Assembly (NCBI GenBank): GCA_034680345.1
Contig: JAXISZ010000008.1
Coordinates: 5,363 to 69,362 of the forward strand
Length of the DNA: 64,000 bases
From: Burkholderiaceae bacterium
GTDB taxonomy: Bacteria; Pseudomonadota; Gammaproteobacteria; Burkholderiales; Burkholderiaceae_B
Direction: 5' to 3'
The notes under the pieces are model-generated. The model made no database searches. It was not told the DNA's origin and saw only the letters and a program-made list of their open reading frames with translations. Every line of letters starts with the position of its first letter. Positions within the stretch are counted from its first letter, which is position 1. This document shows, piece by piece, positions 12,012 to 54,659 of the stretch. The translations under genes were made by a program, and so were the position numbers.

Positions 12012-12016
12012 ACTTA

Positions 12017-39116: not shown

Positions 39117-40958
39117 ATGTGTGGCATAGTTGGGGCTATTGTTAAAAATAATTGTGTGCCGTTTTTAATTGATGGATTAAAGCGTTTGGAGTACCGTGGC
39201 TATGATTCTGCTGGTTTGGCTGTTGCAGACCCAAAAGATCATCATATTCGCCGCGCCCGCAGTGTTGGGCGTGTTGCGCAGTTAGAATTGCAAGCCGCTT
39301 ATTTAGAAGCCAAGCTGGGGATTGCGCACACCCGTTGGGCAACCCATGGTGTGCCCAGTGAACGCAATGCGCACCCGCACACCAGTGATGCCAATGGTTT
39401 TACTGTGACTGTGGTGCATAACGGTATCATAGAAAATCATGATGAAATTCGTCGTCAGTTAATGGTGGCTGGTTACGTTTTTAGCTCCGATACTGACACA
39501 GAAGTCATTGCCCATTTAGTGCATCAAAACATGACTCGTGGGCAAACCTTATTGGCAGCTACACAAGCAGCGACTAAGCGGTTACAAGGTGCGTTTGCAA
39601 TTGCTTTAATTGCATCAAATGCACCAAACACCTTAGTGGCAGGTCGCAAGGGTGCCCCTTTATTAGCAGGTTTGGGTGAAGGCGAAGTTTATATTGCCTC
39701 TGACGCTTCAGCTTTGGTTTCTAAAACTCAGCGTATTGTTTATCTTGAAGAAGGCGATGTGTTGTGTGCCAATTTGGAAGGTATTGCCATTTACAATGCC
39801 CGTGGTGAAGTTGCCAACCGTTCGGTGGTCACTAGCGAATTGTCTGCTGATGCTGTAGAACTTGGTCCTTACCAGCATTACATGCAGAAAGAAATTTTTG
39901 AGCAATCTGGTGCAATTGCAGCCACTTTAGAAATGGTGAGCAATGCCAATGCCATTAGCCCCGAGCTTTTTGGGGCGGAGGCTGCACCGGTTCTTAACCA
40001 GGTTGGGCAAATTGTGATTTTGGCTTGTGGCACCAGTTACCATGCGGCGTTGGTGGCGCGTTATTGGTTGGAAAGTATTGCTGCTGTGCCCACAAGTGTT
40101 GAAATTGCCAGTGAATATCGGTACCGTGACAGCGTTTGTTTGCCCAATACTTTGGTCATTACTGTGTCGCAATCGGGTGAGACGGCCGATACATTGGCGG
40201 CGTTACATCATGCACACAACCACGGCGTGGAACACACGTTAAGTATTTGCAACGTGCCTGAGTCAGCCTTGATGCGAGCATCGCGGTTAAAATTTTTAAC
40301 CCGCGCAGGCCCTGAAATTGGGGTGGCTTCAACCAAGGCATTTACCACACAATTGGCGGCTTTATTTACCTTTACGTTAGTTATGGCTAAATTGCGAGGC
40401 CGTTTAGATTCTGTTCAAGAAGCGATGCTTTTGGCTCAGCTGCGGCATTTGCCTGCGGCGGTGGCCAAAGTGTTGGAAATTGAAGCGGATATTAAAGTGT
40501 GGGCGCAGCGCTTTGCGCAAAAACAGCACACGCTTTTTTTGGGTCGAGGTGTGCATTATCCTATTGCTATGGAAGGTGCTTTAAAGCTAAAAGAAATTTC
40601 TTATATCCATGCTGAGGCCTATGCAGCTGGCGAGCTTAAGCATGGTCCTTTGGCTTTGGTGGATGCACAAATGCCTGTGATTGCTGTTGCTCCCAACGAC
40701 CTTTTAATTGAAAAATTAAAATCCAATTTACAAGAGGTGAGCGCTCGTGGCGGTGAATTGTTTATTTTTGCTGACCGCGACACCCGCATGCAGTCCTGTG
40801 ATGGTGTGCATGTCCTGAATTTACTGGATCACGCTGGGTATTTATCGCCCATTTTACATGTGTTGCCTTTGCAGCTTTTGTCTTACCATGTGGCCTTGGT
40901 TAAGGCTACAGATGTGGATAAACCTCGCAATTTGGCTAAGAGTGTTACGGTGGAATAA
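39117..40958 (+). CDS. glmS: glutamine--fructose-6-phosphate aminotransferase
   Basis: It has the MCGIVGA N-terminal nucleophile, SIS domains and the C-terminus [13 protein letters not shown]. The last codons lie inside the island's left repeat. Confidence 0.95.
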
Positions 40959-40974
40959 TTTTCTTTTGACCTTT
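40947..40974 (+). repeat. left junction repeat (attL-like), includes the last glmS codons and stop
   Basis: ACGGTGGAATAATTTTCTTTTGACCTTT matches 54472-54499. The 11-bp core is perfect, and ~24-25 of ~29 aligned positions are identical. Confidence 0.65.
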
Positions 40975-41043
40975 TTCGGGGTCAAAGTTCAATCGTCCGC
41001 ATACCTTCGTGTTCGAGTTCGGGTTGAAACCAAAGCTCTGTCC

Positions 41044-41280
41044 TTGGGATACCTTGACCCTGCGCATCAAGCCCTGATCGACCGCATCCTGAGGCTTCAC
41101 CAAAACGGTATGAATTGCCGCCAGATTGGAGACCACCTGAATGAGTTGGGGGTGACCTCTTGGGGCGGGAAACGGTTCTATCCGGAACTGGTGTTTGGAG
41201 TGGTCAGGAAGGCTAGGATCAAGGCTGAACGGATATCTGATGCTTTGATGGAAGTACGGTGTGAAATTGTTTCAAATTGA
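41044..41280 (+). pseudogene. serine-recombinase 'recombinase domain' fragment lacking the catalytic N-terminus
   Basis: LDPAHQALIDRILRLHQNGMNCRQIGDHLNELGVTSWGGKRFYPELVFGVVRKA fits the recombinase-domain pattern (IAxxLNxxGVxTxxGxxW). No resolvase catalytic domain lies upstream, because glmS is there. Confidence 0.45.
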
Positions 41281-41349
41281 TTTTCTTGATGCGAAACTTT
41301 GCAAATCGATCAAGAAATTTGAAGCATTAGAGACCTGTTGGATCGCTGG

Positions 41350-41811
41350 TTAACTTGCTAAAAATCCACGCCTGACACGCCATAACAAGTAGCAAAATAG
41401 GAAGCTAGCAAGCGCACCAGACAAGCCCAGTGCCGCACTGATCACATCGCCTTCAACTCTGTATTCGTGTAAACCCAAGGCAGAGAACAAAAGAAGGAAA
41501 AAAGCCCCTCCGAGAAATGCTGTAACTAGATAGAGCTGGACAACGCTCAACATCAATCGCCGAGCCATCGACGGCACAGGGATGGATTTCTGTTTCAGAT
41601 ATATCGATACAACAGTGGGCAACAAAGCAAGAAAATACGCCGTCAATTTGATGTGGTCGGGGTAAGGAATGTTGCCCCATCGTTCGTATGCGTACATCGA
41701 CCAGCGAATGTCTTCAACAACCAACGAAACTATCATCAGAACAGAAGCCCCAATCAAAAAAGTGTGTAAGTTTAGGCGTTTCATATTTTGAGTCGTACAG
41801 GGCAATCTCAA
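41350..41811 (-). CDS. hypothetical 4-TM membrane protein
   Basis: The hydrophobic helices are clear. The likely start is the ATG at 41784 (MKRLNLHTF). I recognise no domain. Confidence 0.45.
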   Translation of the reverse strand: MRLPCTTQNMKRLNLHTFLIGASVLMIVSLVVEDIRWSMYAYERWGNIPYPDHIKLTAYFLALLPTVVSIYLKQKSIPVPSMARRLMLSVVQLYLVTAFLGGAFFLLLFSALGLHEYRVEGDVISAALGLSGALASFLFCYLLWRVRRGFLAS

Positions 41812-42205
41812 AGGACTTGAGGCTTCTGCTTCCGTTGGAAGCCTCGCTTATCTAAAAAATTGGCATTCCCTATCCAAGGACTACGGGAAGTAGCCCTAGC
41901 CCCGCCACGATTGGTACATCTTTAGACGAGGCTCTAACAATAGCTGAGATGTAGACATCTCTATGAGAATCTTCAAGGGTTCCACCGCCACTCTACAAAA
42001 CACCGTCAAATTCTGGTTAAAAAACCGCACCCAGGGCATACAACCTGTACCACATCTTTTGAGTAGTTAGCACGCCAAGACCGAGAACGAAATCAAAAAA
42101 ATCATCAAAGTCTCACGTCGAACCAAAACCTGAATTTTCACATCACCGGCAATAAATGTCAGCGTTCCACCTACACATTACCTTAAGATTGAGAAAAAAA
42201 GGACA

Positions 42206-43561
42206 TTGATGAGTACAAACGATTCGCTTGGTTTTTACAGCACTCTCGGTGTGACGCAGCAAGCATCCCAGTCAGAAATCAAGGCGGCGTACCGTAGCAA
42301 GGCAATGGAGTTTCATCCTGACAGGAACCCTGACAGAGATACGACCTCAGAGTTCCAAGCCCTACAGGCAGCGTACGACGTACTCTCTAACGAGAAACTG
42401 CGCCAGCAATATGATGCAGACAGTTCCATCCCCTCAAGTTCCACTAGTGATGACGAAGGCAGATATAGGCCGCTCGACCCAATTTATTGCTCAAAATGCA
42501 GCTCGGTCTCGGCGCAACCCCGATACAAGGTTTTTTACTCCGTCTACGGGTACATTTTCGGGGCTTATAAGAAGCCACATCAAGGTATTTTTTGTTCGAA
42601 ATGCGAAATCAAAGAAGGACTTAAGGCATCTGCTTTAACTATGGTTGCTGGCTGGTGGAGTATTGCAGGCTTTCTGTGGACCATACAGACGCTGATTCAG
42701 AACCTTGTAGGCGGTAGGTTTAGCGAACAAAATGCCCGACTGCAAGGCTACCAAGCTATGTATTTCGCCCAAATTGGCAAGCTTGATCTTGCCAGAGCTA
42801 TTGCGGTTGAAGCCTTGAAACTGGCTAAAAAGGCGACAAAAGAAAACGGGAAGAGTTTCTCCTTCAAGAAGAACCTTGGTTATGAAACTCCAGATCCACT
42901 CAAGGAATTACGAGACTCGCTAACAAAGTTTATTGACTCACTCGCAGAGGACACAAAGCTTGTTGAACTCAAGAACAAAAATGAGATTTTCAACAAACGA
43001 TTCGCCTATCAGCTCCTTCTTCTGGTCTCCTTTGCAGGGCTAATTTCTGGTGAGCTCTATCGACAAGAACTAGAGACCCGAGAGAAGGAACGCATACGCC
43101 TTGAACAACAGGGAATTGAAAGAGAAAGAGCCGCTGCAATCGCTGCGCAGCAGCAAGAGGAACTGAGGAAATCTGAGCTACCCCTTCCTAGAAGTGGACT
43201 GTTTCGAGGCTTTAGTCCCGTTAATGCACCGCCATTAAAAGTAACCAATTCGCCAGGAGCGAATACGCTAATGAAGCTCATCCGCACTTCTGACGGTGCA
43301 GAGGTAATGAGCATCTTCATTAGAGCGGGTCAAACTGTAGAGCTTGGCGTTCCCGTTGGCAGCTATAACGCAAAAATCGCCTCTGGACAGACTTGGTATG
43401 GGGACTCCATTAGATTCGGCCCCAACACAAGCTATACAACGCTCGATACCGTTCTTCACTTCTCGATTCAAGGTTCTCAGTTACTAGGGAATGAACTTAC
43501 CCTAACTCAGATCAAAAACGGGAATCTACGACAAGTCCCACTTAGCGCAAATGAATTTTGA
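42206..43561 (+). CDS. J-domain protein with CxxC zinc-ribbon-like segment, TM segment, coiled coil and unknown C-terminal domain
   Basis: It has a J domain with HPD (YSTLGV...IKAAYRSKAMEFHPDRNPD...AYDVLSN). This is followed by CSKCS...CSKCE, the hydrophobic stretch MVAGWWSIAGFLWTI, and an E/R/Q-rich coil. Confidence 0.8.
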   Translation: MMSTNDSLGFYSTLGVTQQASQSEIKAAYRSKAMEFHPDRNPDRDTTSEFQALQAAYDVLSNEKLRQQYDADSSIPSSSTSDDEGRYRPLDPIYCSKCSSVSAQPRYKVFYSVYGYIFGAYKKPHQGIFCSKCEIKEGLKASALTMVAGWWSIAGFLWTIQTLIQNLVGGRFSEQNARLQGYQAMYFAQIGKLDLARAIAVEALKLAKKATKENGKSFSFKKNLGYETPDPLKELRDSLTKFIDSLAEDTKLVELKNKNEIFNKRFAYQLLLLVSFAGLISGELYRQELETREKERIRLEQQGIERERAAAIAAQQQEELRKSELPLPRSGLFRGFSPVNAPPLKVTNSPGANTLMKLIRTSDGAEVMSIFIRAGQTVELGVPVGSYNAKIASGQTWYGDSIRFGPNTSYTTLDTVLHFSIQGSQLLGNELTLTQIKNGNLRQVPLSANEF

Positions 43562-43600
43562 AGCTAGCAATGACTAAAGAAAGAAACTGGTCTAATTGCA

Positions 43601-43954
43601 TCATTCGAACTTCCTAACTGCTTCTTCATATGCAGAATTTATTTGCTTTGTTTTTTCCTCAGCAATCATCGTAAATTCTGGTCCTAAAGAAGAGACCTTG
43701 TCTGGGTGATATTGAGAGATCTTTCTTTTGTAGGCAGCTTTTATTTCTTCAAATGAGGCGCCTGGAGTGACATCAAGAGTTTTGTACCAAGACTCGTGAT
43801 TAGACTCTTTAGGAACGTCATATGGATGCTTACCGTTAGACTCAGAAGCCTCGGCTTCCTCTTTGCTAGTCAGCAAAAGACGGACCAGACCATAACCAAA
43901 GAACAGAGCACACAAGACAATGAAGATTTCCTGATTACTTAGACCTTCAAACAT
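43601..43954 (-). CDS. membrane-anchored mini J-domain protein (DjlA-like topology)
   Basis: It has the N-terminal TM IFIVLCALFFGYGLVRLLL and a C-terminal J domain, WYKTLDVTPGASFEEIKAAYKRKISQYHPDK. Confidence 0.75.
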   Translation of the reverse strand: MFEGLSNQEIFIVLCALFFGYGLVRLLLTSKEEAEASESNGKHPYDVPKESNHESWYKTLDVTPGASFEEIKAAYKRKISQYHPDKVSSLGPEFTMIAEEKTKQINSAYEEAVRKFE

Positions 43955-44658
43955 TTCGCAAATCCTTGTAGCAAAGCAATCTTTGATGGATCAGACTCTT
44001 CGTCAAGTGCTGCATTTGTTTGGTTAGTTAACTCATACCGAATCAACTCTGCATCATCTTTCGCTACTCGCTTTAAAGCTCTAATGTGCAACCGTATCGC
44101 ACATATTTTAGAATCTTTAAGTAGCAATATTTTTTTATTGAGGTTTACCAAATAAGCGGGAACGAAAAGCGCCTCCACAAGCAGGGAGATCACCTTCCCC
44201 TTTGGTAACTCTTGCGCTCTTATGAGCAACAAAACAAAAAAAGCTGCAAGCATCCAGATGAAGGCGTGTCCAACCAGCAAGTTAACAACAACTGCCTCGA
44301 AGCCAAATACAAACGAGAGGTAGCAGTTCACTACGAGAAAAAAAAGATACAAATATCCTAAGAAAGCCAACGAGTTCAAGCCTCTAGCCAAAAATTCAAT
44401 TGAGCGCAACTCTCGCTTGTATAGATGTTTTTCCTCGTTCAACGTCACTCTTTCTACCGATATGACACGATCAAACAAATTGATGGGATTGAGAAATACA
44501 ACATCTCTTCCTGCAAATGAATTTCGTTGACGATGCTTGTAATACGGTCGTCCATGTCGACTTATACTGAGAAAATCTTTTCCTTTCGCTATGACAACTA
44601 GGTTGTCGAATACAAGAAATCCTAAAAGAATAACCCAAAAAAGTAACGTCTCGTTCAT
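43939..44658 (-). CDS. hypothetical polytopic membrane protein
   Basis: The 239-aa product has several TM helices and overlaps both neighbouring genes (operon). Confidence 0.5.
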   Translation of the reverse strand: MNETLLFWVILLGFLVFDNLVVIAKGKDFLSISRHGRPYYKHRQRNSFAGRDVVFLNPINLFDRVISVERVTLNEEKHLYKRELRSIEFLARGLNSLAFLGYLYLFFLVVNCYLSFVFGFEAVVVNLLVGHAFIWMLAAFFVLLLIRAQELPKGKVISLLVEALFVPAYLVNLNKKILLLKDSKICAIRLHIRALKRVAKDDAELIRYELTNQTNAALDEESDPSKIALLQGFAKCLKV

Positions 44659-45473
44659 TAGGTTTTATTTCTGGCGAACCACTTTTTGATACCCGCCCAA
44701 ACAGCAGCAGCAGCTCCAACTACTGCCAATAAGATAAGTTTCAAGCCCCCCTTTTTTGTTGCAACTGCCGCAGCTCCACCGAGAACCAATGCACCTAGCC
44801 CATAGGCTGCAACACGGTCACCATCTTTCCATTCGCTGTATTTTTCACCACTTACATAATCAAAATTCTTGAGCGCACTCTTAAAATCTACCAAATCTTT
44901 CTCGAGACTCTGAGGATCAGAGACTAAAATTGCAGAAATGTATCCACTACGCCCCAAAATTTTCGTTGTGACGTTGACCGTGGTACTCTGGTCATTTTCG
45001 GATCTTAGTTTTGTACCCCATTCAAGTCGTTTTGTTTCATTGTCGTAACGTGGTGGAAAATACCACCCCTCCAAAACCATCGTTTGGAGTCCTTGCTTCT
45101 TCCTCTCTTCGTTACCTCGTTGATTACTCTCTTTGAGGCTTGCCAACAGCGCATCAGCATCAATCTTTTCATCGTCCTTTATATATCCTTCATTGTTAAA
45201 GCGCAAAACGCCAAACCAAGAGCTATTTTTAGTAGCGATTGTGTATGAACTTGTTTGTGGAAGGTTCCCATTGAGCTGAAGAAACCTGTCTGTATCTCCT
45301 GCATCCAAGAACAACAAAGGTTCAGTAATCTTGAACTCACCTTTGTCTCCGATCTTTCCTACTGCTGGTGCCATCTGCCAGTTAAGATTTTTAAATTCGG
45401 GGATTTTATGCAGTTGTGCTTGCGCTAGTGTAAAAGCTACACTTAACGCAGCAGCAATAAATGTCTTTTTCAT
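44658..45473 (-). CDS. DUF2167 membrane-anchored protein
   Basis: It has a signal peptide and the WFGVLRFNNEGYIKDDEKIDADALLASLKESNQRGNEERKKQG and KILGRSGYISAILV motifs, as I recall for DUF2167. It also has a C-terminal Gly/Ala-rich TM anchor. Confidence 0.65.
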   Translation of the reverse strand: MKKTFIAAALSVAFTLAQAQLHKIPEFKNLNWQMAPAVGKIGDKGEFKITEPLLFLDAGDTDRFLQLNGNLPQTSSYTIATKNSSWFGVLRFNNEGYIKDDEKIDADALLASLKESNQRGNEERKKQGLQTMVLEGWYFPPRYDNETKRLEWGTKLRSENDQSTTVNVTTKILGRSGYISAILVSDPQSLEKDLVDFKSALKNFDYVSGEKYSEWKDGDRVAAYGLGALVLGGAAAVATKKGGLKLILLAVVGAAAAVWAGIKKWFARNKT

Positions 45474-45483
45474 TTTTTATTTC

Positions 45484-45708
45484 CTATAAATCAGTGTTGT
45501 TGTTTTGAATGAAAAACTTATAAATCGAGAACCCACATAAGAGCTCGCCCAAAGTAATAAGCCCCCAAAATGGACCGCTACCCAGCGTCCACACAAATGC
45601 AATTCCGAGTAAAATCAAAACACCCTTTTTAGGTGGATTCACGTACTTCCCAACGAAAAATCCTATCCCGGAAAATAGCAGGAAATAGATAAACATCAAA
45701 AAATCCAA
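45484..45708 (-). CDS. small 2-3 TM membrane protein
   Basis: The 74-aa product is hydrophobic and lies within the operon. Confidence 0.4.
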   Translation of the reverse strand: MDFLMFIYFLLFSGIGFFVGKYVNPPKKGVLILLGIAFVWTLGSGPFWGLITLGELLCGFSIYKFFIQNNNTDL

Positions 45709-45761
45709 TTTTGTGTCGATAACGTAAGATCTTGACCGTTTTAGATCTTAAAAATCTCAAA

Positions 45762-46214
45762 TCATTTGGATAGTTCAATTAGTTTTGGATAATCATCAAA
45801 TATTTGATTTGCTTGTTCAATAAGTCGAATTAGTATAGTTAATGTCTTGGCATCATATGGGCCAAATTTATACAGACAAACATAAAGCGTATCGCCTTCT
45901 AGTGCAACTTGATATGAAGTCTGTACGTTTATTTTATTTAATATCTCAAGAAATTCTATTCGATTTTGCCCGGATGGCATTTTTTCAAGATTGAACATCC
46001 TGAATATAGATGTTCTTTCATTATTTTTATCGAATAGAACTTTCCCTCGTCCTAATGTGGCAATTGAAATTCTATTGTTTTCTGTGGGCTTTACCTCGTA
46101 ACCCATCGCCTCAAGTTGTTTTGCAATTGGATCATCTTTTGCTAAAGATGCTGCAACTGCAATTGATGAATTCATAAGCAAAACGCTTGCCCATAGAATA
46201 AAATATTTCTTCAT
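45762..46214 (-). CDS. secreted protein, possibly YbjN-like fold
   Basis: It has the signal peptide MKKYFILWASVLLMNSSIAVAA. The remainder loosely resembles the YbjN/chaperone-like family, and that assignment is weak. Confidence 0.4.
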   Translation of the reverse strand: MKKYFILWASVLLMNSSIAVAASLAKDDPIAKQLEAMGYEVKPTENNRISIATLGRGKVLFDKNNERTSIFRMFNLEKMPSGQNRIEFLEILNKINVQTSYQVALEGDTLYVCLYKFGPYDAKTLTILIRLIEQANQIFDDYPKLIELSK

Positions 46215-46380
46215 AAACTTCCGTTAAATTTTGGTGTGTGTTCGCCATCTTACACATCTCAAAAAAAGAATCAACAACTACGAAGCCAGTCTAACCCTGG
46301 CCATAGACGCTGCTGTCGCTTGCGTGAACTTCAAGACGTAACCTTTTGCCAGTTCCATCAGGTGCACGCCATAGCGGACA

Positions 46381-46624
46381 TTAAAAAATCAGTTTCACGA
46401 TATCCGATTTGTTGACTGGCACGGACCCAACACAACCGTTACCGTCCTCTTGACACGGCACAGCTTGACTTTCTGTCACGGCTAGCAGCAGCATAGAGTA
46501 GCCAATACGCACCTGCTTCGTCGGCGAGGTACTTGGCACCGTCGGTGATAAGACACCGACGGTTTAGGCGATAGTAGTGCTCAGTCTCGGTGAAGTGACT
46601 GAGCATCGATGGATCGAATGCCAT
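46381..46624 (-). pseudogene. frameshifted/deleted DUF6876-like gene remnant
   Basis: The ORF FTETEHYYRLNRRCLITDGAKYLADEAGAYWLL stops prematurely. A second frame continues with CQEDGNGCVGSVPVNKSDIVKLIF up to the stop at 46381-46383. The family call is from memory. Confidence 0.35.
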
Positions 46625-46633
46625 TGACAGGCA

Positions 46634-46999: not shown

Positions 47000-47231
47000 G
47001 GTCTTTTCTCCTGTAGTGTCATTCGCACCGTGCGTTTGACTAGATCTATAGTATTCATCGGAGAGAAAACGTACACCGCTTTGTGGGCACTGTATTACCA
47101 GTGACACATTTAATAAAAATCGGTGTACAAAAGAGAAAATTCGATTTATTGGCAGTAAAAAGTCTGCTGGGTAGATCCAAAGAAGAAATCAAAATACCTT
47201 AGGTGTCAGTACGTTTGTCCATTTCCAACAT

Positions 47232-47477
47232 TTAGGTCTTGAAAGTTTTGAGTCGTTGCAAAAGAACTTTATCTTCTGTTCCAACCCCGATACCAAGACC
47301 AGAGATGTAGGATAGAAGTTTGTTTTGTTGAGAGATCAACCTGTTTTGTTTGATTGGATCTTTTTCTTGTTCAATCTGTTTAGATAGGTTGCTAATTTTT
47401 ACAACTAAGGTGCCGACAGTAAATCTAACCCAAACAGGATAGGTGCCTTCATTAATGTATTGTTTAAATTTCATCAT
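47232..47477 (-). CDS. hypothetical protein (AT-rich module)
   Basis: An 81-aa ORF, last in a four-gene same-strand series. I recognise no domain. Confidence 0.35.
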   Translation of the reverse strand: MMKFKQYINEGTYPVWVRFTVGTLVVKISNLSKQIEQEKDPIKQNRLISQQNKLLSYISGLGIGVGTEDKVLLQRLKTFKT

Positions 47478-47479
47478 TA

Positions 47480-47665
47480 TTAAACGCCTTCAACTAAAAT
47501 TACTGAAACATATCCTTTTCTCATCTTTTTTTCTAGTTCGTTTAAGAGGTCTTTTCTGTCATTATTTGAATTCAGATCCCACACTTCAAATTTATGAATT
47601 TTCATCGATTGAAGATTTTTGACGACTATATTTTTGGATATGATATTATGATTCTTGTTATTCAT
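47480..47665 (-). CDS. hypothetical protein (AT-rich module)
   Basis: A 61-aa ORF that overlaps the upstream gene by 4 nt. Confidence 0.35.
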   Translation of the reverse strand: MNNKNHNIISKNIVVKNLQSMKIHKFEVWDLNSNNDRKDLLNELEKKMRKGYVSVILVEGV

Positions 47666-47973
47666 AGTCGCAGTCCGTCATCATAAGGATCGAGGAAATC
47701 GTCTGAAACAGGTATATTGAGTGGTTCATCATATGAATCGTCCCAAGTTGATGGTTTATGATGGTTAATCTGTGGAAGATTTTTTATCTTAATGTTTGTA
47801 ATTAAGTCATTCAATTTGCCATCTTCCTTTATGAGTTTGAATTCTTTTCGGCAAAACTCTTCAATCATCGAATTCAAGACAGATGTTCTTGACACTCTTT
47901 TAAAATTTACAAGCTGATCAAAGTTCTTTTTTAAATGATTGGGAATGTTGAAGTTTATTAGTGTGTAAGACAT
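47662..47973 (-). CDS. ribbon-helix-helix (CopG/Arc/MetJ-like) protein
   Basis: The N-terminus TLINFNIPNHLKKNFDQLVNFKRVSRTSVLNSMIEEF fits the RHH strand-helix-helix pattern. Confidence 0.45.
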   Translation of the reverse strand: MSYTLINFNIPNHLKKNFDQLVNFKRVSRTSVLNSMIEEFCRKEFKLIKEDGKLNDLITNIKIKNLPQINHHKPSTWDDSYDEPLNIPVSDDFLDPYDDGLRL

Positions 47974-48135
47974 TATTTAATCTCCTTTAGTATTGTTGTT
48001 ATTTGTTATATTCATGATCTGTTTTGGTATTGTTATTAATTATTTAATTTTAGGCAATAGCATAGACTAAAGGAAAAGATGATCTTTCCTTTTTGATGGT
48101 TGATGGACTGATAAAGGGAAATTATTCCAACAATA

Positions 48136-48627
48136 TCAATGTAAAAACACGTTGTCCCAATCAACTGAAGATTGAAGTCCTTCGCCCTTCGATCTATTTT
48201 TTAATTTATAATCAAGCCAACCAAAATAATTATCTATAGGTTTGATTTCTATATCATGGTATCCGAATGTAGTTTTGCGCCAACATTTGATTATCATGTT
48301 TCTAAATTCATCTGGGTCCAAATGAATCGGTTTTTCTAGAGTCATGTGTATGTGAAAACGTATAAATGAATTGCCTTCAATTACTGGAACGACTGATAAT
48401 CTTTTTCCATATCTTGTAAAACCCTTGCCAAACACTGATTGATTAAGTCGGTTCATGAAGTGTCTTGTATTTTTAGAAACTTTTAATGGATCAAGATTTT
48501 CTCCAAATCTACCTTTGGAATGATTCCGCTCTAATCTTTGTTTTAAAGTGAGTGTTAGAGCAACGGGATTGGGAATAGGTTTGTTCTGAAAAAAATCGAG
48601 ATAATCAAATTTTGTTGGTAAATTCAT
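48136..48627 (-). CDS. candidate HUH-type rolling-circle Rep endonuclease domain protein
   Basis: Three motifs occur in the canonical order: ALTLTL (res 23-28), FHIHMTL (HUH, res 91-97) and DYKLK (YxxK, res 139-143). There is no helicase domain. Confidence 0.4.
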   Translation of the reverse strand: MNLPTKFDYLDFFQNKPIPNPVALTLTLKQRLERNHSKGRFGENLDPLKVSKNTRHFMNRLNQSVFGKGFTRYGKRLSVVPVIEGNSFIRFHIHMTLEKPIHLDPDEFRNMIIKCWRKTTFGYHDIEIKPIDNYFGWLDYKLKNRSKGEGLQSSVDWDNVFLH

Positions 48628-48924
48628 TAAGTCCTTTAATACTGTGTAATATTAATATCATTATTTATATGAAAATTACCCCATATTTACTAATCTATGA
48701 AAATATTTTTATAAAACAGAATTTGTAATTTGCCGCCTTGAGGGTTTGATTAATAATTGCTACTTGAATGATGTTCTCGCTATTTACACCAGAGTGTTGA
48801 CATCTTCTTAAGAGAAGATTGAAAAATTTTGAGAATGGCTATCCTATGTCGTGATAACCGAGATGTCGGCGCACACTTCGCCACAGACTTTCTTGAATAT
48901 GTTCAAGCGCTGGTGGTGATATCG

Positions 48925-48942
48925 TTTTTTTTGGGGGGGGGG
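48925..48942 (+). repeat. T8G10 homopolymer junction
   Basis: TTTTTTTTGGGGGGGGGG directly abuts the truncated recombinase pseudogene. Confidence 0.9.
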
Positions 48943-48943
48943 C

Positions 48944-49120
48944 TACTCATTGCACTGTGGTGAGCGCATGTTCATCACGAATGCAGCTCGAAAGATCAGC
49001 ACGGTTGGCTTCTCTTTACGTGGCGAGTAGATGCTGGCGGGTCACTAGTCCCTAGCTGTCACCCAGCGGTATATCGACGACGACAGTGAGGCGAGAATGA
49101 AGATCGTCGACCTGATCTAG
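48944..49120 (+). pseudogene. 5'-truncated tyrosine recombinase paralog with two in-frame TAG stops
   Basis: It translates as YSLHCGERMFITNAARKISTVGFSLRGE*MLAGH*SLAVTQRYIDDDSEARMKIVDLI*. This is colinear with the C-terminus of the intact gene at 52172-52774 (SSHSGRRTFITNAAKKISTVGGSLRDVQWLAGHSSLQTTQRYIDGDSDARRKVVDLV*). Confidence 0.8.
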
Positions 49121-49140
49121 GCTGATATGGGTCTAATTCC

Positions 49141-51837
49141 TTACCGGTATTCAATCAGCAGGAATTCAGCGCCACCTGCAATAAGATCGTTGATCTTGAG
49201 TTTTGGGAACAGGTTGCGCTTAAGCACTCCTAGTTTGATTCGCACCTCCTGCGTGTTGGGCACTCGATGCGGCGTGAAGACCGTTTTCTTGGCAGCATTG
49301 TCTACATCGGTCTTGGTGCAGGGAATCCCTGCTTCATCGTTTAGGATGTCCGCCAGATCCTTCGCTTTGAGCTTGTAGGTCGGGAAGATGTTTTTTCTGC
49401 CAAAGGCATGTGGTTTTAGCTCATGCGTGCCTGCCTTACGCAGCTTCAATGCGATCAACAGCTCCTGACGCAACCTCTTCAAATCGCCTTGGTCTTTCCG
49501 CAGGTATTTCGAGGCATCGCCCTCAGTGCTCAGGCTGCTTTCGTGGAATGTTGCAAAGGCTTCGAGGTCCTCGACCGTTTTCAGGCAATGCCGTTCCGAC
49601 AGGTTGTATTGCTCCCATAACTGACGGGTCTTTTGAAACTGCTTGATGGTCTCCCAGGGACATGTTTGAAATTGCAGATGCTGGTAGCCTTCACCCTTAG
49701 TCATGACGGGATTGGTCGGTCGTCGCTTCCAGTCGTACTCCATGGAAAGGACTTTTTCCATTTCACGGTCGACGAAATCAGCACCAAGTTCATACATGTC
49801 CCGGATGCCGAGACCCAAGGTCATCATCATCGTATCTGTGGGCTGGCGGTTGAAAAAGAGGTTGATGATTTGGCTATTTTCGGCTGGCTTTGAGGCTGGA
49901 TCAGGCAGTTTGATGCCGCCCTTTGCGAGGACATATCGCTCGTCTTCCTTAGGCGCCATGCCCGTGTCTTGCCAGTCTGATGCCTCACTTGGAACAAGGG
50001 TAGCCTGAGCACGTGTTCGCCAGCCCAATGGCTTTCGTATGATGTGTTTGATTTCGTAAACGTCTTCTTTGCCAGATGAGACGCCAGTCAGAAGACGCCT
50101 AGAGGATCGGTAAAACCGACAAAGCGTGCCTTTGGATGCTTGCGCCATTTGCTCGGCAGTCGCAGTGGTCAAGAAACCATCGGTCGTCACGTTGAAGATG
50201 GCAACATTCTTGGGCAGGGCGTTCATAATTTCGCCCAGCACGCCCCGACAAAATGCAGTGATGAAGGCGGCATACACTGGGTTCGTGATCGGGCTTTCAG
50301 CGAGTGGCTTGGTGTCTTGGTCTCGCAGATCATAGATGCGTCGCTCTCGCAACCCTTGAGCAGTCTTGCCATAAGTCGAGTTGACTAGCTCTTTCCAGAA
50401 CAGGTTATTTAAAGTCTTTTTCGGGAACTGCTTACGCTGCTCGATGCAATAACGGGTGAAGCCGTCAAACGGGCGCACTGGGCGCTCAATTCCCTGCTTA
50501 ACTTTCCCATGTCGCCCAGACGGGATGAAACGTCCCTCAATTAATGTGATCTTTGCCCCCAGGCTGTGCGCCAACAAGATCTCGCTGATGTGAGTCGTGC
50601 TGTTGCCCTTTCGGGGAAAAATCAGACCGTTCTCGGTTCTGACTGGCAACACCGGATAGGCAACATCATCAGGGAACTCAAAATCGACATTGGCAAACGC
50701 CAGCTCGGCGGACCGAAAGTTCAACAATTCATCTGTGTCACGAATGGGGCGGCATTCGTCCCAATCAGGTCTGCCGATCAAAGCCATCGCCGATGGATAG
50801 GCGCTGGAAAGGTCATAGTCATACCAGACGCTTTCAAACGCAGGTCCAAACCAGAATTGCTCGTTGCGTCCGCCGTGATAACACTCGGTGAAGAAGTCGA
50901 GCGACCAATGGATTTTCTTGAGGTAAACGATCTTTTTCTTGGTCTGATATCTCCCGAAGCGTTTGCTCCAGTATTTCTCTTTGATTTCCTCTTTGCCGAC
51001 GATCTCAAGTGGGTTAACGCCTTGGTCCTTCCAGAACTGTCGGATCAGATCGACGCCGATGGAGGTCAATGTCACAGGCATGCGGAACTTGCCAGTCCGG
51101 TCTTGGTAAAGACGGATCATCCTACGGGTGTATTGGGTGCAGATTTCGGCGTCTCGGATGGCGTACTCATGAAATGCATCCCAATCTTGCTGCATGAACG
51201 CCTTCATGTTCTGCTTGATCTTCAGCTCTTCCTGTGGGGTCGAACCAAGTTCGATCTTTTCAAAGTCAAGGATGTCACCAATACCTGCAAGGCTCTTTGC
51301 GCCAGCAGGGGCAAGGGTCATGGTGTCCCGGATTTTCACACTAATCGGGATGCTATCGCCGGAAGAAGTCTTACCAAGGTTCAGCCTAATGTCATTGGCG
51401 ACGTTCATGAAGAGGTTGCGAATGTTGTCCAGCTTTAGGGTTGATCTTGTCGCTTCGTCTTTGAAGTCAGCAAATCCCGGCACATCAGCCCTTGTGAAGT
51501 GGGCGACAAGATAGATCGTGCTGGGCAAAATTAGGTTAGGGAAGCGGGCGCAACCATCAGCCAACGCAGATGTCAGGAAATCTTCCAGAGTTATACGGTC
51601 CTCAACATTAGGACCTCTTGGCTTGAGCAGTCCTGACCAGATTGGTGCAGAGCTATCATCACCATGACGTTCTATCACGGTGCAGCAGTATTGATAGCTG
51701 AGAACCTCGTTGTTTAAGGTCCGGCTGGCGTCGTCAGTGTATCGCTGGTATTCGGTATCAAAGCCAATGATCAGGTAACGGCTGGGGTCAGCACGCACTG
51801 TGTGGATCGAATCGAATTGTGACTTTAATAAGGGCAT
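49141..51837 (-). CDS. family-B DNA polymerase, primer-independent PolB (piPolB)-like
   Basis: Motifs: ExoI FDTEY (D27/E29), ExoII HFTRAD, ExoIII YAIRD. Also YHGGRNE, motif A DLSSAYPS (342-349), motif B KELVNSTYG (482-490), motif C TTDG (551-554), and KH-x8-RTR (597-609). Confidence 0.85.
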   Translation of the reverse strand: MPLLKSQFDSIHTVRADPSRYLIIGFDTEYQRYTDDASRTLNNEVLSYQYCCTVIERHGDDSSAPIWSGLLKPRGPNVEDRITLEDFLTSALADGCARFPNLILPSTIYLVAHFTRADVPGFADFKDEATRSTLKLDNIRNLFMNVANDIRLNLGKTSSGDSIPISVKIRDTMTLAPAGAKSLAGIGDILDFEKIELGSTPQEELKIKQNMKAFMQQDWDAFHEYAIRDAEICTQYTRRMIRLYQDRTGKFRMPVTLTSIGVDLIRQFWKDQGVNPLEIVGKEEIKEKYWSKRFGRYQTKKKIVYLKKIHWSLDFFTECYHGGRNEQFWFGPAFESVWYDYDLSSAYPSAMALIGRPDWDECRPIRDTDELLNFRSAELAFANVDFEFPDDVAYPVLPVRTENGLIFPRKGNSTTHISEILLAHSLGAKITLIEGRFIPSGRHGKVKQGIERPVRPFDGFTRYCIEQRKQFPKKTLNNLFWKELVNSTYGKTAQGLRERRIYDLRDQDTKPLAESPITNPVYAAFITAFCRGVLGEIMNALPKNVAIFNVTTDGFLTTATAEQMAQASKGTLCRFYRSSRRLLTGVSSGKEDVYEIKHIIRKPLGWRTRAQATLVPSEASDWQDTGMAPKEDERYVLAKGGIKLPDPASKPAENSQIINLFFNRQPTDTMMMTLGLGIRDMYELGADFVDREMEKVLSMEYDWKRRPTNPVMTKGEGYQHLQFQTCPWETIKQFQKTRQLWEQYNLSERHCLKTVEDLEAFATFHESSLSTEGDASKYLRKDQGDLKRLRQELLIALKLRKAGTHELKPHAFGRKNIFPTYKLKAKDLADILNDEAGIPCTKTDVDNAAKKTVFTPHRVPNTQEVRIKLGVLKRNLFPKLKINDLIAGGAEFLLIEYR

Positions 51838-51844
51838 GACAGAA

Positions 51845-51888
51845 GTAGTAAAAGTTTATCCTAATTACCCATACCAAACTTTTACTAC
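51845..51888. repeat. perfect 13-bp inverted repeat (18-nt spacer) just upstream of the polymerase start codon
   Basis: GTAGTAAAAGTTT at 51845-51857 pairs with AAACTTTTACTAC at 51876-51888. Confidence 0.9.
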
Positions 51889-52171
51889 AATGTTAGCGCC
51901 CAAAAAATTGAAAAAGACTATTTTTTATTAAAAGTAAAAATAAGTAAAAATAAGTTAAATGTAGTTTTATTTAAAATTTATCAATTCAAATCCGGAATCG
52001 ATTGATCGAGTAGGCGGAGGTCTATCGCCGTAACTGGTTATCGAATAACAAAAATATCATCAGTCACACTAAGCCATTGATTTCAAACACTATTTTGTCC
52101 GTACAAAACGGTGTACGAAATGATCTCGTTTTATTAAAATAGATTTTGATATTTTTATAACGAGATAGCTC

Positions 52172-52774
52172 ATGGCACTTGGAAAACAAGCAAAGGTCCT
52201 GTCGAAGCAGCAAATCGAATCCCTGTACCTCTCGCTGTCATTGACCCGAGACCCTGACAGGAACCGTCTGATCTTCCTTCTGTCTGTGAAGGCGGGTCTG
52301 AGGGCAAAAGAGATCGCTGGGCTGACGTGGGGAATGGTCATTGATGCTTCAGGTGATCTTTCAGATCAGATTGCCTTGGAGAACTTGGCGTCAAAGGGCA
52401 TGTCAGGTCGGATCATCCCGATTAACAAACTGCTTAAGCAGGAGCTCCAGCGCCAGTTGGATGGAGTCCTTGTCAAGAAGACCATCCAAGAAATCCGCAA
52501 TCAACGGGTAATACAAACCCAAAGGGGCGATGCAACATCTGCCCAGGTGATCGTGAATATGTTCAAAGGTTGGTATGCCCGTGCTGGTCTGATTGGTTGT
52601 TCATCCCATAGCGGCCGCCGTACCTTCATAACCAATGCAGCAAAAAAGATTTCTACGGTTGGTGGCTCATTGAGAGATGTTCAGTGGCTTGCTGGTCACA
52701 GCAGCCTTCAGACAACCCAGCGGTATATTGATGGCGATAGTGATGCCCGCAGGAAGGTTGTTGATCTTGTCTGA
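52172..52774 (+). CDS. small tyrosine recombinase (catalytic domain only)
   Basis: The catalytic residues sit in RAKEIAGLTW, HSGRRTF and LAGHSSLQTTQRYI (the RHRY-type set). Confidence 0.85.
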   Translation: MALGKQAKVLSKQQIESLYLSLSLTRDPDRNRLIFLLSVKAGLRAKEIAGLTWGMVIDASGDLSDQIALENLASKGMSGRIIPINKLLKQELQRQLDGVLVKKTIQEIRNQRVIQTQRGDATSAQVIVNMFKGWYARAGLIGCSSHSGRRTFITNAAKKISTVGGSLRDVQWLAGHSSLQTTQRYIDGDSDARRKVVDLV

Positions 52775-54443
52775 AGTTCTCCACATCTACACCCGTGTTT
52801 CCACCCTTGTCCAAGCCGATGAGGGAATGTCTTTGGAGTTCCAAAAAGAGTTGGGTATCAAACGTGCTCAGGATCTGGGCTTTGACTTCAAGCTTTGGAA
52901 CGAAGGTGGCAAGTCCTCAAACCACGAAGAACTTGATAAGCGACCAATGCTGTCGCAGCTTTTCAACGAGATAAAACGTGGCTCCGTCAAACACCTGTTT
53001 GTGTACGATCAGTCACGGTTATCACGTAACGACACGGTCTCATCCATCTTCCGTATCGAATGCGCCAAACAGGGAGTGACCCTTTACAACAAGGAGGGGA
53101 AGTACAACCTGAGTGACCACAACGACCACTTCATGAAGCAAATTCTTGATGCGGTCGGTCAATTCGACAATGCCCAAAGAGCAGAACGAACACGACTGGG
53201 CAAATTGGCACGAATTAGGCAGGGGAACTGGATGGGAGGGCCTCCACCATATGGCTACGAAATCCAGAATCGAAAATTGGTCATCAATGATGAAGAAGCG
53301 AAATGGGTCAAGTACATCTACGAGCAATATGCCGAGCGTGTGCCACTCATTGACGTGAAATTTGAGCTTGACTCCAAGGGGGTCGAACCAAGGCGCAAGC
53401 TTGGCACTTGGACGATGGGCTCATTGCAGGCGTTGCTGCGAAATACCCACTACCTTGGGTATTGGGATTTTAAGGATGGAAAGACAGGTGAGGAAATCCG
53501 AGTTGATTGCCCCCGGATTCTTCCTTCTGCGTTGTGGTCCAAAGTTCAGAAAACCAAGGAAGATCATCTCAGCAAACGCAACAGCACCAATGCGGTGAAG
53601 CATTTCTACATGCTCAAGAACGTGCTTCGCTGTGGTCATTGCGGAACATGGCTGTCTGGAACAATTAACCCAAAGCAACCAAGTAAGAAACACTACTACT
53701 GTCCCAAGAAAATGCGTGAATGGGGAAAACGGTCGATTGAGCAGGAAGATAAGTGGAAGCGTGGCAGGGTGTGTGAAATGACTCGGTCACTGAACATCGA
53801 TGCCACAGATGAACTGGTCTGGAACACCGTCCTCGATGTCATCACCAAAAGTCGAACCTTCAGAGAAAAAACCAAGGTTGAAATTCTCGGGGAGGACTAC
53901 CTGTCTGCCAAAGGCGCTGAAGAAGAAATCAAAAATGTGAATCAGAAGGTGAGCCAGTTGAAAAAGATGCTGGCAAAGGTGCAGGATGCACTTGCACGGG
54001 TGGAGACGGACAGGTTGATGGAGCGACTGAGCCCCGATCAGTACCCAGTTGTTCGTGGAAACATCAGCAAAGAAAAACTGGCGATTGAAGTCGAAATCGA
54101 ACAACTGACTGCTAAGGCTGACGGCATCGGTCGTGATCGTAAGTGGTTCAAATGGCTGGATAACTTTCGGCAAAAAATCGACTCATTCAAGGATTTCACG
54201 CCTGCCCAGCGCAAAGAGGTCTTGGCGGGGCTTTTAACCTCGGTGGATGTTTTAATGATCGACAGTCAGACACATTGGCTGGAACTTCAATTCAATGTGC
54301 CGCTCGTGGATGATGAGTTGGTGTATCGTGATCCATCCAACAAGAAGCTCGGCTATGCCATCAAAAATGGCATGACGACCTGCATGGTTGAGCTATCCCA
54401 GAAGTCCCATGGCAAAAAAAAACCAATCGAGCCAACTACTTGA
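52743..54443 (+). CDS. large serine recombinase
   Basis: It has the resolvase motif IYTRVSTLVQ, a recombinase domain (GGPPPYGYE), a zinc ribbon (CGHCG...YYCP) and a coiled coil. The start is uncertain: the ATG at 52743 overlaps the Tyr recombinase by 32 nt, and the track ORF begins at 52677. Confidence 0.85.
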   Translation: MPAGRLLILSEVLHIYTRVSTLVQADEGMSLEFQKELGIKRAQDLGFDFKLWNEGGKSSNHEELDKRPMLSQLFNEIKRGSVKHLFVYDQSRLSRNDTVSSIFRIECAKQGVTLYNKEGKYNLSDHNDHFMKQILDAVGQFDNAQRAERTRLGKLARIRQGNWMGGPPPYGYEIQNRKLVINDEEAKWVKYIYEQYAERVPLIDVKFELDSKGVEPRRKLGTWTMGSLQALLRNTHYLGYWDFKDGKTGEEIRVDCPRILPSALWSKVQKTKEDHLSKRNSTNAVKHFYMLKNVLRCGHCGTWLSGTINPKQPSKKHYYCPKKMREWGKRSIEQEDKWKRGRVCEMTRSLNIDATDELVWNTVLDVITKSRTFREKTKVEILGEDYLSAKGAEEEIKNVNQKVSQLKKMLAKVQDALARVETDRLMERLSPDQYPVVRGNISKEKLAIEVEIEQLTAKADGIGRDRKWFKWLDNFRQKIDSFKDFTPAQRKEVLAGLLTSVDVLMIDSQTHWLELQFNVPLVDDELVYRDPSNKKLGYAIKNGMTTCMVELSQKSHGKKKPIEPTT

Positions 54444-54471
54444 ATAAAGGTCAAAAGGACTTTAGTCCGCC

Positions 54472-54499
54472 ACGGTGGAATAGTTTCGCTTTTACCTTT
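54472..54499 (+). repeat. right junction repeat (attR-like), a displaced glmS 3'-end look-alike
   Basis: ACGGTGGAATAGTTTCGCTTTTACCTTT reads ...T V E TAG in the glmS-equivalent frame. Confidence 0.65.
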
Positions 54500-54650: not shown

Positions 54651-54659
54651 GGGGGGGGG
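54651..54659 (+). repeat. G9 homopolymer in the intergenic region right of the island
   Basis: I counted it directly. It is preceded by GGGGTT. Confidence 0.9.

Follow-up and report, generated by a model that had tools for sequence, protein, structure and literature searches.

A 13.5-kb block of foreign DNA directly 3' of glmS

We analyzed a 64,000-nucleotide stretch of contig JAXISZ010000008.1 (positions 5,363 to 69,362, forward strand) from the Burkholderiaceae bacterium assembly GCA_034680345.1, referred to here as the window. In this window a 13.5-kb block of foreign DNA, bounded at 40947/48 and 54472/73, lies directly 3' of glmS and carries a large serine recombinase (LSR) gene together with a family-B DNA polymerase gene of predicted piPolB (primer-independent) type. 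We consider it likely that the block is an element integrated at glmS by its LSR, and that it belongs to a widespread family of polymerase-less elements of which this copy carries a piPolB gene. The host is a Burkholderiales bacterium; its nearest GlmS sequences (83% and 80% identical) both come from Burkholderiales metagenome-assembled genomes (MAGs). The glmU gene is located upstream of glmS, and to the right of the block lies a glycan and polysaccharide cluster with HAD/UbiA, PMT_2, GT2, GT4, Wzz and Poly_export genes. No Rfam RNA families were found across the window, and no tRNA genes were present in it. The genes and predicted sites at the centre of the analysis are as follows.

39117-40958 (+): glmS, the target gene; 613 aa, intact, GATase_6/7 and SIS domains, ending TVE-stop
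40921-40974 (+): predicted attL; glmS-side B arm to 40946, AC at 40947-40948, P' arm at 40949-40974
40966-41280 (+): smallL, a conserved gene for a 104-aa helix-turn-helix (HTH) protein; TTG start within the P' arm
46634-47107 (-): p157 (157 aa), a backbone gene common to polymerase-less glmS/LSR elements
47232-47477 (-): p81 (81 aa), AT-rich Rep module
47480-47665 (-): p61 (61 aa), AT-rich Rep module
47662-47973 (-): p103 (103 aa), AT-rich Rep module
48136-48627 (-): HUH Rep, 163 aa, with T-x-T, H-x-H and Y-x-x-K motifs
48848-49117 (+): tyrosine-recombinase pseudogene; C-terminal ~90 codons with three in-frame stops
49141-51837 (-): predicted piPolB-type family-B DNA polymerase, 898 aa, intact; PF03175, E 1e-10
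51838-52171 (no strand): spacer separating the divergently oriented piPolB and YR200 genes; candidate promoter or origin
52172-52774 (+): YR200, a 200-aa Xer-like tyrosine recombinase; PF00589, 1e-17; overlaps the LSR start
52731-54443 (+): LSR, with Resolvase, Recombinase and Zn_ribbon_recom domains
54446-54499 (+): predicted attR; P arm at 54446-54471 with AAAGGTCAAAAG at its outer end, AC at 54472-54473, right half-site at 54474-54499

The 11-bp sequence ACGGTGGAATA is present in exactly two copies in the window, one at 40947-40957, where it forms the final glmS codons, and one at 54472-54482, 28 nt past the LSR stop codon. The count by itself is weak, as at least two matches were obtained in 19 of 100 shuffles; the repeat is meaningful because of its position at the end of glmS and just past the LSR. 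With mismatches allowed, the direct repeat spans 28 nt (40947-40974 and 54472-54499; 82% identity). The initial annotation had described a block bracketed by a repeat at the glmS end with host glycan genes resuming to its right, and both the repeat positions and the gene content confirmed this layout.

The large serine recombinase tracks with glmS

The LSR matched PF00239, PF07508 and PF13408, all above their cut-offs, and its catalytic YTRVST motif is kept in 20 relatives. Its start is uncertain: the gene-caller start at 52731 gives a protein of 570 aa, and most relatives are 551-569 aa long. We compared about 100 related loci (designated by L numbers), which were collected from a metagenome profile scan, later look-ups and IMG/VR. 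This analysis revealed that the LSR has relatives (33-92% identity) at glmS in 22 or more further loci. In L087, L096, L113, L116-L121, L128, L137, L141, L160, L169-L171, L174, L178 and L179 the relative closes an island whose other end is the glmS stop codon, and in L124, L130, L131, L154 and L031 it directly adjoins the glmS stop in convergent orientation. Single-protein scans of viral contigs with the LSR and the polymerase gave no matches, whereas an alignment-based scan did find relatives. The closest phage match to the LSR was less than 25% identical, and its CcrB score was 82 bits against a cut-off of 900.

The closest LSR relatives (63-92% identity) are always paired, by gene overlap, with a 200-aa tyrosine recombinase, and this YR200-LSR pairing was seen in L085-L093, L100, L139, L149 and L154. 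In the Rhodoferax MAG L087 the pair lies at the far end of an 11.4-kb, polymerase-free island that begins at the stop codon of glmS. YR200 itself consists of the catalytic domain only, with the conserved R, H-x-x-R, H and Y residues seen in its translation, and it scored far under the cut-offs for XerA, XerC and XerD. Relatives of YR200 that occur without an LSR were found in tRNA-flanked elements with tRNA repeats of at least 40 nt and a separate 401-aa terminal integrase. Because these LSR-less relatives sit at tRNA sites, it is the LSR, not YR200, that tracks with glmS. Both genes had low ratios of nonsynonymous to synonymous substitution (dN/dS; 0.056 for the LSR and 0.05 for YR200), and the LSR, YR200, polymerase and Rep genes are all intact with dN/dS values of 0.05-0.09. 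Taken together, these comparisons identify the LSR as the predicted integrase targeting the end of glmS, in a clade that is widespread in aquatic bacteria.

Four of the loci, each with an element of ~10.5 kb running from glmS to the LSR, are catalogued as viral in IMG/VR (L137, L141 and the uncultivated viral genomes (UViGs) L178 and L179). L178, the one scanned, encodes a small serine resolvase, methyltransferases and a C5 DNA methylase fusion, and no virion genes. All four are probably integrative elements misclassified as viral.

Attachment sites, crossover and tandem accretion

The P and P' arms form a 26-nt inverted repeat that is 81% complementary about the AC dinucleotide, with a perfect outer 12-mer. 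The predicted attP junction reads ...GGACTTTAGTCCGCC-AC-GGTGGAATAATTTTCTTTTGACC... and the predicted restored attB reads ...AAGAGTGTT-AC-GGTGGAATAGTTTCGC.... The P' arm carries a synonymous copy of the final glmS codons and CTTTTGACCTTT. A related insertion in an unrelated host, L170 (described below), has the junctions gtg-AC-GGTGGAGTAA at attL and gtc-AC-CGTTGAGTGA at attR. When attL and attR were compared within L170, L113, L117 and L137, the two copies diverged from the third base on and AC was their sole common part. That AC alone is shared, and that it lies at the centre of the attP dyad, fits the 2-bp non-palindromic crossover of a serine recombinase. The predicted crossover is thus the AC dinucleotide of the glmS Thr codon, with attB being the glmS end, ...GTT/AC/G GTG GAA TAG. 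GlmS stays intact because the P' arm brings synonymous Val-Glu-stop codons, and the repeat in the window is a perfect 11 bp because the last codons of this host happen to match those of the element. The 11-bp repeat does bracket the element, as first described, but its proposed role as the crossover core does not hold beyond its first two bases; the remainder represents element-borne synonymous codons, as seen in L170, L113, L117 and L137.

The glmS arm, AC and the terminal codons are all still present in attL, which should thus be open to further integration, so that elements can stack. Consistent with this, in L104 and L116/L118 the end of an LSR gene is followed by the P arm, core and P' arm of another element. 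The same layout was seen in L095, which may be either a tandem array or a circularly permuted episome (an excised circle). L104 also holds a mini-remnant made up of only a left end and an LSR 3' end. The replacement codons that the element carries are predicted to regenerate the target, which would explain such tandem stacks. In the window, the right half-site (54474-54499) matched the P' arm of the Rhodoferax locus L087 at 22 of 26 positions, and the window's own P' arm matched that of L087 at 19 of 26 (manual count). This half-site may be the native end of the host glmS (with a TAG stop), or it may be left over from an earlier family member at the site.

In the Betaproteobacteria MAG contig CANIID010000031.1 (L031, positions 11851-12063), a C-terminal LSR fragment of 72 aa adjoins the glmS stop convergently. 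This is the scar left by a member of the family, and the site in this genome is otherwise 'empty'.

The same element in two unrelated hosts

Loci L170 and L171 (ENA ERZ27250480 and ERZ27250415) come from a host with 61% GC, and their GlmS is 57% identical to that of the window. Both contain window positions 40947-46283 at 91% nucleotide identity, fused directly to 54135-54488 at 95%. Alignment of the glmS region with L170 showed an identity of ~0.45-0.7 up to the core and of 0.88-1.0 from the core on; on the right side the similarity to L170 stops at 54488, 6 nt beyond the core. An identity of 91-95% that begins at the core in an unrelated host therefore indicates that one element has integrated at an identical nucleotide position in two very different genomes. 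In L170 the cargo runs directly into the final 121 codons of the LSR gene and attR; the segment corresponding to 46284-54134 has been lost, and with it p157, the Rep module, the polymerase gene, YR200 and the codons for LSR residues 1-450. Judged from these alignments, L170 and L171 are deletion derivatives of the same element. The synonymous divergence (dS) of the cargo from L170/L171 is only 0.11-0.15, and the J-domain and DUF2167 cargo genes are 87-98% identical at the amino acid level with a dN/dS of ~0.1. Retention of the cargo after loss of all mobility and replication genes suggests that the J-domain/DUF2167 cargo is itself selected for in the host.

We also examined 80 species-representative genomes with GlmS sequences 63-83% identical to that of the window. 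None carried an island gene downstream of glmS, save for the LSR scar in L031. The nearest genomes, L003 and L004, have other genes downstream of glmS; the island is absent from them, but the site is not syntenic. The block is therefore not conserved core DNA, in agreement with its original description, and the view that it is a site-specific mobile element of the glmS 3' end was confirmed by the occurrence of the same element at the same site in the unrelated host of L170/L171.

Mosaic structure and composition

Nucleotide comparison with the related loci divided the element into segments, which are listed with their closest matches and nucleotide identities.

40944-41273: glmS/LSR elements (left end), 70-79%
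41280-46283: only L170-L173, 91-95%
46484-47192: glmS/LSR elements (p157), 74-83%
47239-48813: another glmS/LSR branch (L137, L141, L144 and L148, with LSRs of just 38-40% identity), 73-75%
48856-51888: Planktomarina-type pipolins (polymerase and the 3' part of the tyrosine-recombinase gene), 76-79%
51994-54481: glmS/LSR elements (YR200 and LSR), up to 85%

The module borders are sharp (47192/47239, 48813/48856 and 51888/51994), and the block at 48856-51888 aligns with positions 12962-9949 of the Planktomarina-type pipolin L083 at 76%. At the protein level, p157 is 56-83% identical to homologues in L085-L093, L139 and L174; no Pfam, NCBIfam or PHROG match was found for it. These alignments show the element to be a mosaic of a Burkholderiales glmS/LSR backbone, a Rep module from another branch and a Planktomarina-type polymerase block. 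The polymerase looks like an acquired module on the backbone of a polymerase-less, glmS-targeting LSR family.

The composition of the block is similarly uneven. Its mean GC content is 0.445, compared with 0.441 for the host. GC-richer parts were found at 46.48-47.19 kb (0.50), 48.86-51.89 kb (0.51) and 51.99-54.48 kb (0.48), and GC-poorer parts at 43.56-46.48 kb (0.40) and 47.19-48.85 kb (0.31). Tetranucleotide distances were 0.30-0.46 over 41.25-55.0 kb and 0.15-0.25 in all host windows save one, and GC skew was 0.00 in the island and +0.14 and +0.20 in its flanks. Among relatives in high-GC hosts, the islands are clearly AT-richer than those hosts. The initial annotation had proposed GC-rich DNA at 41.0-47.1 and 48.9-54.5 kb, AT-rich DNA at 47.2-48.9 kb and a compositional break at both ends. 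The AT-rich part and the breaks were borne out, the latter by profiling of tetranucleotide usage and GC skew, but GC-richness applies only to parts of the claimed regions and the block as a whole has the GC content of the host.

The polymerase and the Rep module

Hallmarks of piPolB polymerases are the replacement of the first Asp of the PolC motif by Thr (SxTTDG) and a KH-X8-KTRG motif instead of KxY (PMC5695915). The window polymerase carries the PolC motif NVTTDG at residue 551, where other PolBs carry YxDTDS. Of 13 polymerase relatives that were checked, 11 have SVTTDG and the two closest have NVTTDG, as in the window. At residue 597, KHIIRKPLGWRTRA corresponds to KH-X8-RTRA in place of KxY. 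Compared with the published definition, KH and the spacing are kept and K-to-R and G-to-A substitutions are present; the Roseobacter-group relatives have RTRG. Motifs ExoI (DTEY, residue 27), A (DLSSAYP, 342) and B (KELVNSTYG, 482) are intact, and ExoII and ExoIII were recognised by eye only. The top matches were all from the Roseobacter group, namely Planktomarina temperata and similar marine metagenome contigs, at 84-88% amino acid identity; identity to Leisingera, Ruegeria and related Roseobacter-group genera was 58-61%. A Rhodobacterales seed sequence of the 2017 pipolin study (PMC5695915) came from this group as well. Known plasmid pipolins of Staphylococcus, Limosilactobacillus and Fusobacterium matched more distantly, at 25-26% identity (E 1e-35 to 1e-39), and no sequence relative was present in the PDB. 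The NVTTDG and KH-X8-RTRA motifs and the matches to plasmid pipolins supported the earlier call of a family-B polymerase with piPolB-type motifs, and on these motifs and pairwise matches we assign it to the piPolB type. With a dN/dS of 0.06 against its nearest relatives, the gene is predicted to be functional. Because it carries a piPolB gene, the element is a pipolin by definition.

A further polymerase-LSR combination was observed on the marine metagenome contig OUOG01004176 (L142, positions 43-5017), where a piPolB gene (56% identity over 699 aa) adjoins an LSR gene whose product is 37% identical to that of the window. This may be another polymerase-plus-LSR element of the wider clade, with its integration site off the contig.

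Next to the polymerase lies the Rep module. Residues T25, T27, H92, H94, Y140 and K143 of Rep are invariant in 10 homologues, eight of which match the Pfam family REP_ORF2-G2P (PF23343; best E 2.3e-8). The invariant HUH motifs and the Pfam matches of the homologues therefore point to Rep being an HUH rolling-circle initiator. Amino acid identity of the Rep module was 67-84% to L137, L138, L141, L144, L148 and L178-L180, and 37-61% to the Planktomarina pipolin L084. A similar Rep is found beside piPolB in L084 and L176, and in glmS elements that have no polymerase. An inovirus-like prophage, which would carry a Zot-type morphogenesis ATPase and coat proteins with its G2P-type Rep, was considered and rejected, as the Rep-module proteins had no PHROG matches and the related L178 has no virion genes. 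On the other side of the polymerase, the intergenic region between piPolB and YR200 contains 105 bp with a GC content of 0.18 (51889-51993), including 2.8 copies of AAGTAAAAAT at 51932-51959. This AT-rich stretch could be a promoter, an unwinding element or an origin.

The left-end gene and the recombinase pseudogene

The smallL gene starts 7 nt past the glmS stop codon. Its start lies in the P' arm, and therefore the sequence upstream of it changes with the integration state. More than 150 stand-alone homologues, typically of 104 aa, were found in Limnohabitans and other Burkholderiaceae, some of them matching PF07508, and smallL also lies directly inside attL in L086-L088, L090, L096, L104, L149, L170 and L174. 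Its dN/dS was ~0.2. A sub-threshold Pfam match (E=0.04) relates smallL to the first half of the LSR Recombinase domain; BLASTP between smallL and the LSR was not significant. The AlphaFold2 model has three helices. We infer that smallL is a candidate excision or directionality factor, not a remnant.

The pseudogene at 48848-49117 is 56% identical to YR200 residues 113-200 by tblastn and is collinear with the polymerase, as in Planktomarina pipolins. Two recombinase remnants had originally been reported in the block. The one at 48848-49117, with its three stops, is a true pseudogene, but the one at 41.0-41.28 kb proved to be the conserved 104-aa smallL gene, which is under purifying selection.

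A model for integration and the alternatives

In the model that we favour, the LSR recombines a ~54-bp imperfect-palindrome attP (P arm, AC and P' arm) with the attB at the glmS end, inside the last four codons. Excision would require the LSR and a directionality factor, for which smallL is the best candidate. The 163-aa HUH Rep would then nick the circular form, and piPolB would copy it through strand displacement and priming of the complementary strand; resolution of multimers would fall to the LSR-coupled YR200. Re-targeting of the regenerated attL would lead to tandem stacking. Strand displacement and de novo priming have been shown for the piPolB of E. coli (PMC5695915). The most solid of the new points are the glmS-specific LSR clade, the AC crossover and the presence of the same element in two unrelated hosts. 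The replication and excision roles proposed for Rep, piPolB, smallL and YR200 are the least solid, and the self-replicating nature first ascribed to the element is putative.

Several observations weigh against this model. No empty site or circular junction was found for the host or element of the window: an exact GlmS look-up returned no contigs, searching with the HAD/UbiA neighbour gave back just this occupied contig, a 25-nt pattern matching attR and the empty site had no matches in the metagenome collection, and an attP-junction pattern had none in viral contigs or among all compared loci. The intact tyrosine recombinase could share in integration or excision, and no transfer machinery was identified in the element. 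The window Rep scored 19.5 bits against the PF23343 cut-off of 27.8. For smallL, the evidence for a directionality role is its position and conservation, and Foldseek against the PDB gave no match at E<=0.001, the best being a small-terminase HTH (E 0.2) and serine-integrase chains (E 1-3). Synonymous sites of the polymerase are saturated against its nearest relatives (dS 1.2-1.6), and hence there was no recent capture from a sampled donor. A Logan contig ending 2 nt before the core was set aside as uninformative, because an attP/attR branch would come after the core and a second sample reads through.

Four alternatives to this model were weighed. The block might be a fixed island that has lost its mobility, a domesticated remnant: one recombinase in it is a pseudogene, neither an empty site nor a circle was found, and decayed relatives exist (L170, L174, L031 and L104). 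However, the LSR, YR200, polymerase, Rep and smallL genes are all intact and under purifying selection, and the outer 12-mer of the att arms is still a perfect inverted repeat, so that we find this reading unlikely. It is highly unlikely that YR200 is the integrase and the 11-bp repeat its overlap region, as in tRNA-integrating pipolins. Although a tyrosine recombinase with conserved catalytic residues is present, the element is flanked by a direct repeat (11 bp perfect, 28 nt at 82%) and classic pipolins combine tyrosine integrases with direct repeats, the repeat copies in sister insertions have no more than AC in common, and a dinucleotide could not serve as the overlap of a tyrosine recombinase. 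Moreover, LSR-less relatives of YR200 are not at glmS, LSR relatives with no adjacent YR200 are still at glmS (L119-L121, L137 and L141), and YR200 is without the N-terminal DNA-binding domains of integrases.

The strongly modular composition of the block, the frequency of tandem arrays at the glmS site and the occurrence of the left cargo without the right half in L170 and L171 would all suit two tandem elements, a left cargo island and a right pipolin. This reading is very improbable given that the block has no internal copy of the core or of either att arm, that L170 is a deletion derivative of one element (LSR 3' end and attR fused to cargo), and that polymerase-less relatives carry smallL (left), p157 and YR200-LSR (right) within a single element. 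The last alternative is a transposon, either a Tn7-like insertion at attTn7 or a self-synthesizing DNA transposon bounded by 26-bp terminal inverted repeats, with the 11 bp as its target-site duplication. The inner ends do form a 26-nt inverted repeat, a flanking direct repeat and a family-B polymerase are present, and the glmS neighbourhood is the classic Tn7 site. Against this, no transposase, Cas1, rve-integrase or Tns domain was found in the scanned open reading frames (>=61 aa), the 'duplication' copies differ in sister insertions and hence represent no target duplication, the insertion lies within the last glmS codons and not downstream of the gene, and the polymerase carries piPolB motifs, in contrast to the protein-primed PolB of casposon- and polinton-type elements. 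We regard this possibility as extremely remote.

Relationship to known mobile elements

Alphaproteobacterial pipolins usually carry an LSR, sometimes together with a tyrosine recombinase and without a change of site; non-tRNA pipolin sites include yifB, ychF, ftsK/spoIIIE and T2SSE, and pipolin evolution includes integrase swaps (PMC11551731). The main text of that study mentions no glmS target, no Betaproteobacteria or Burkholderiales hosts, and neither 'rolling' nor 'HUH'. Full-text literature searches for glmS with serine recombinase returned Tn7 or engineering contexts only. The configuration had been put forward as undescribed. This is only partly so: LSR pipolins in protein-coding genes have already been published (PMC11551731), but the glmS target and a betaproteobacterial host are absent from the main text of that report. 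The element shares with pipolins the piPolB motifs and the general build, a minimal core plus variable cargo in an integrative element of small size. It is closest in layout to the LSR-bearing alphaproteobacterial ones in having an LSR beside an accessory tyrosine recombinase, a protein-coding target and module exchange. It differs from pipolins in its glmS target, its Burkholderiales host, a backbone common to polymerase-less elements, an HUH Rep module that adjoins the polymerase, and cargo without recognisable defence genes.

The pipolins of Planktomarina temperata and the Roseobacter group (L083, L084, L175 and L176) share the closest polymerases (84-88% amino acid identity). A homologous 199/200-aa tyrosine recombinase adjoins the polymerase in L083, L084 and L175, and a homologous Rep/p81/p103 module is present in L084 and L176. 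Unlike the window element, these pipolins have tRNA-Ala or tRNA-Asn 3'-end repeats of at least 40 nt, a 401-409-aa tyrosine integrase and no LSR, and their tyrosine-recombinase copy is a pseudogene in the window. By the distal tRNA repeat of L083 (14654-15859), L084 (18529-19734) and L175 (10019-11224) lies a gene for a 401-aa protein with sub-threshold Phage_integrase and SAM-like matches. This protein is probably a divergent tRNA-specific integrase missed by standard annotation.

With the LSR elements and phages of the phiC31, Bxb1 and SCCmec Ccr type, the element has in common a three-domain LSR, a palindromic attP, a 2-bp non-palindromic crossover and tandem accretion at the regenerated site, and with SCCmec also a conserved gene-end target (rlmH in that case). 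In contrast to these, the window LSR has no close characterised relative, its glmS target is new, and it has a conserved, overlapping tyrosine-recombinase partner. Tn7-like elements encode TnsA/B/C/D, have terminal TnsB-binding repeats and duplicate 5 bp on inserting downstream of glmS. The glmS 3' end is likewise a safe harbour, in which the gene is not inactivated, for Tn7 and CRISPR-associated transposons at attTn7, but these use a TnsABCD transposase and insert ~25 bp downstream, whereas here a serine recombinase acts in the last four codons with no target duplication. Tycheposons (10.1101/2020.12.28.424599) are likewise small elements of aquatic bacteria; they bring their own replication genes and swappable cargo, use a site-specific integrase (tyrosine or, rarely, LSR) and occur in target-site arrays. 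They differ in being defined at tRNA genes in Prochlorococcus, and a glmS target is not reported in that work as far as searched. Overall, the element, though a pipolin by definition, is better described as a glmS-targeting LSR element with a piPolB cassette; it is not a new kind of element.

These comparisons add a fifth non-tRNA site (glmS) and a betaproteobacterial host to pipolins, and provide a clean natural example of proposed pipolin module swapping, with three modules, separate nearest relatives and sharp junctions. They also bring to light a large serine-integrase clade that competes with Tn7 for glmS and that was not found in the literature searched. Since the glmS end (...ACNGTNGARTAA) that forms the natural attB of this LSR is conserved almost universally, the enzyme could serve as a single-protein, broad-host landing-pad tool, and the recurrent pairing of HUH Rep and piPolB suggests a testable answer to the in vivo role of piPolB.

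A wider and more tentative reading, which is on balance doubtful, would place Roseobacter-type pipolins and glmS/LSR elements in one hitherto unrecognised superfamily of small rolling-circle integrative elements of aquatic bacteria with swappable integrase, polymerase and cargo, in which HUH Rep and piPolB form a self-contained replisome, smallL acts as an integration-state switch or directionality factor and the LSR as a one-protein integrase. The terminal integrase cassette would then be either a tRNA-specific tyrosine integrase or a glmS-specific LSR. Replication would start with a nick by Rep and continue by strand displacement, with the complementary strand primed de novo. Read-through into smallL would come from glmS in the integrated state and from the LSR operon after excision, and the LSR would have a target site in nearly all bacteria.

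Cargo genes and other features of the window

The cargo lies between smallL and p157 and comprises the following genes.

41350-41811 (-): membrane protein, 153 aa
42206-43561 (+): J-domain protein, 451 aa
43601-43954 (-): J-domain protein, 117 aa
43939-44658 (-): membrane protein, 239 aa
44658-45473 (-): DUF2167 protein, 271 aa
45484-45708 (-): 74-aa protein
45762-46214 (-): 150-aa protein

PADLOC identified no defence-system match in the cargo. A PHROG scan matched only the polymerase and the integrase, and no other protein of the element.

Poly-G tracts with similar flanks (TTGGGGGGGGGG...) were observed at 48931-48942, inside the tyrosine-recombinase pseudogene, and at 54653-54661, between attR and the HAD/UbiA gene. 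Elsewhere in the window, the host segment at 5.0-7.5 kb is the exception to the tetranucleotide profile given above, with a distance of 0.33, the highest of the host windows. A 718-aa ankyrin-repeat protein (4685-6841, +; Ank_2, E 5e-43) is encoded within a low-GC patch (0.354) at this position. The ankyrin patch may be a second foreign patch or a hint of a eukaryote-associated Burkholderiales host.

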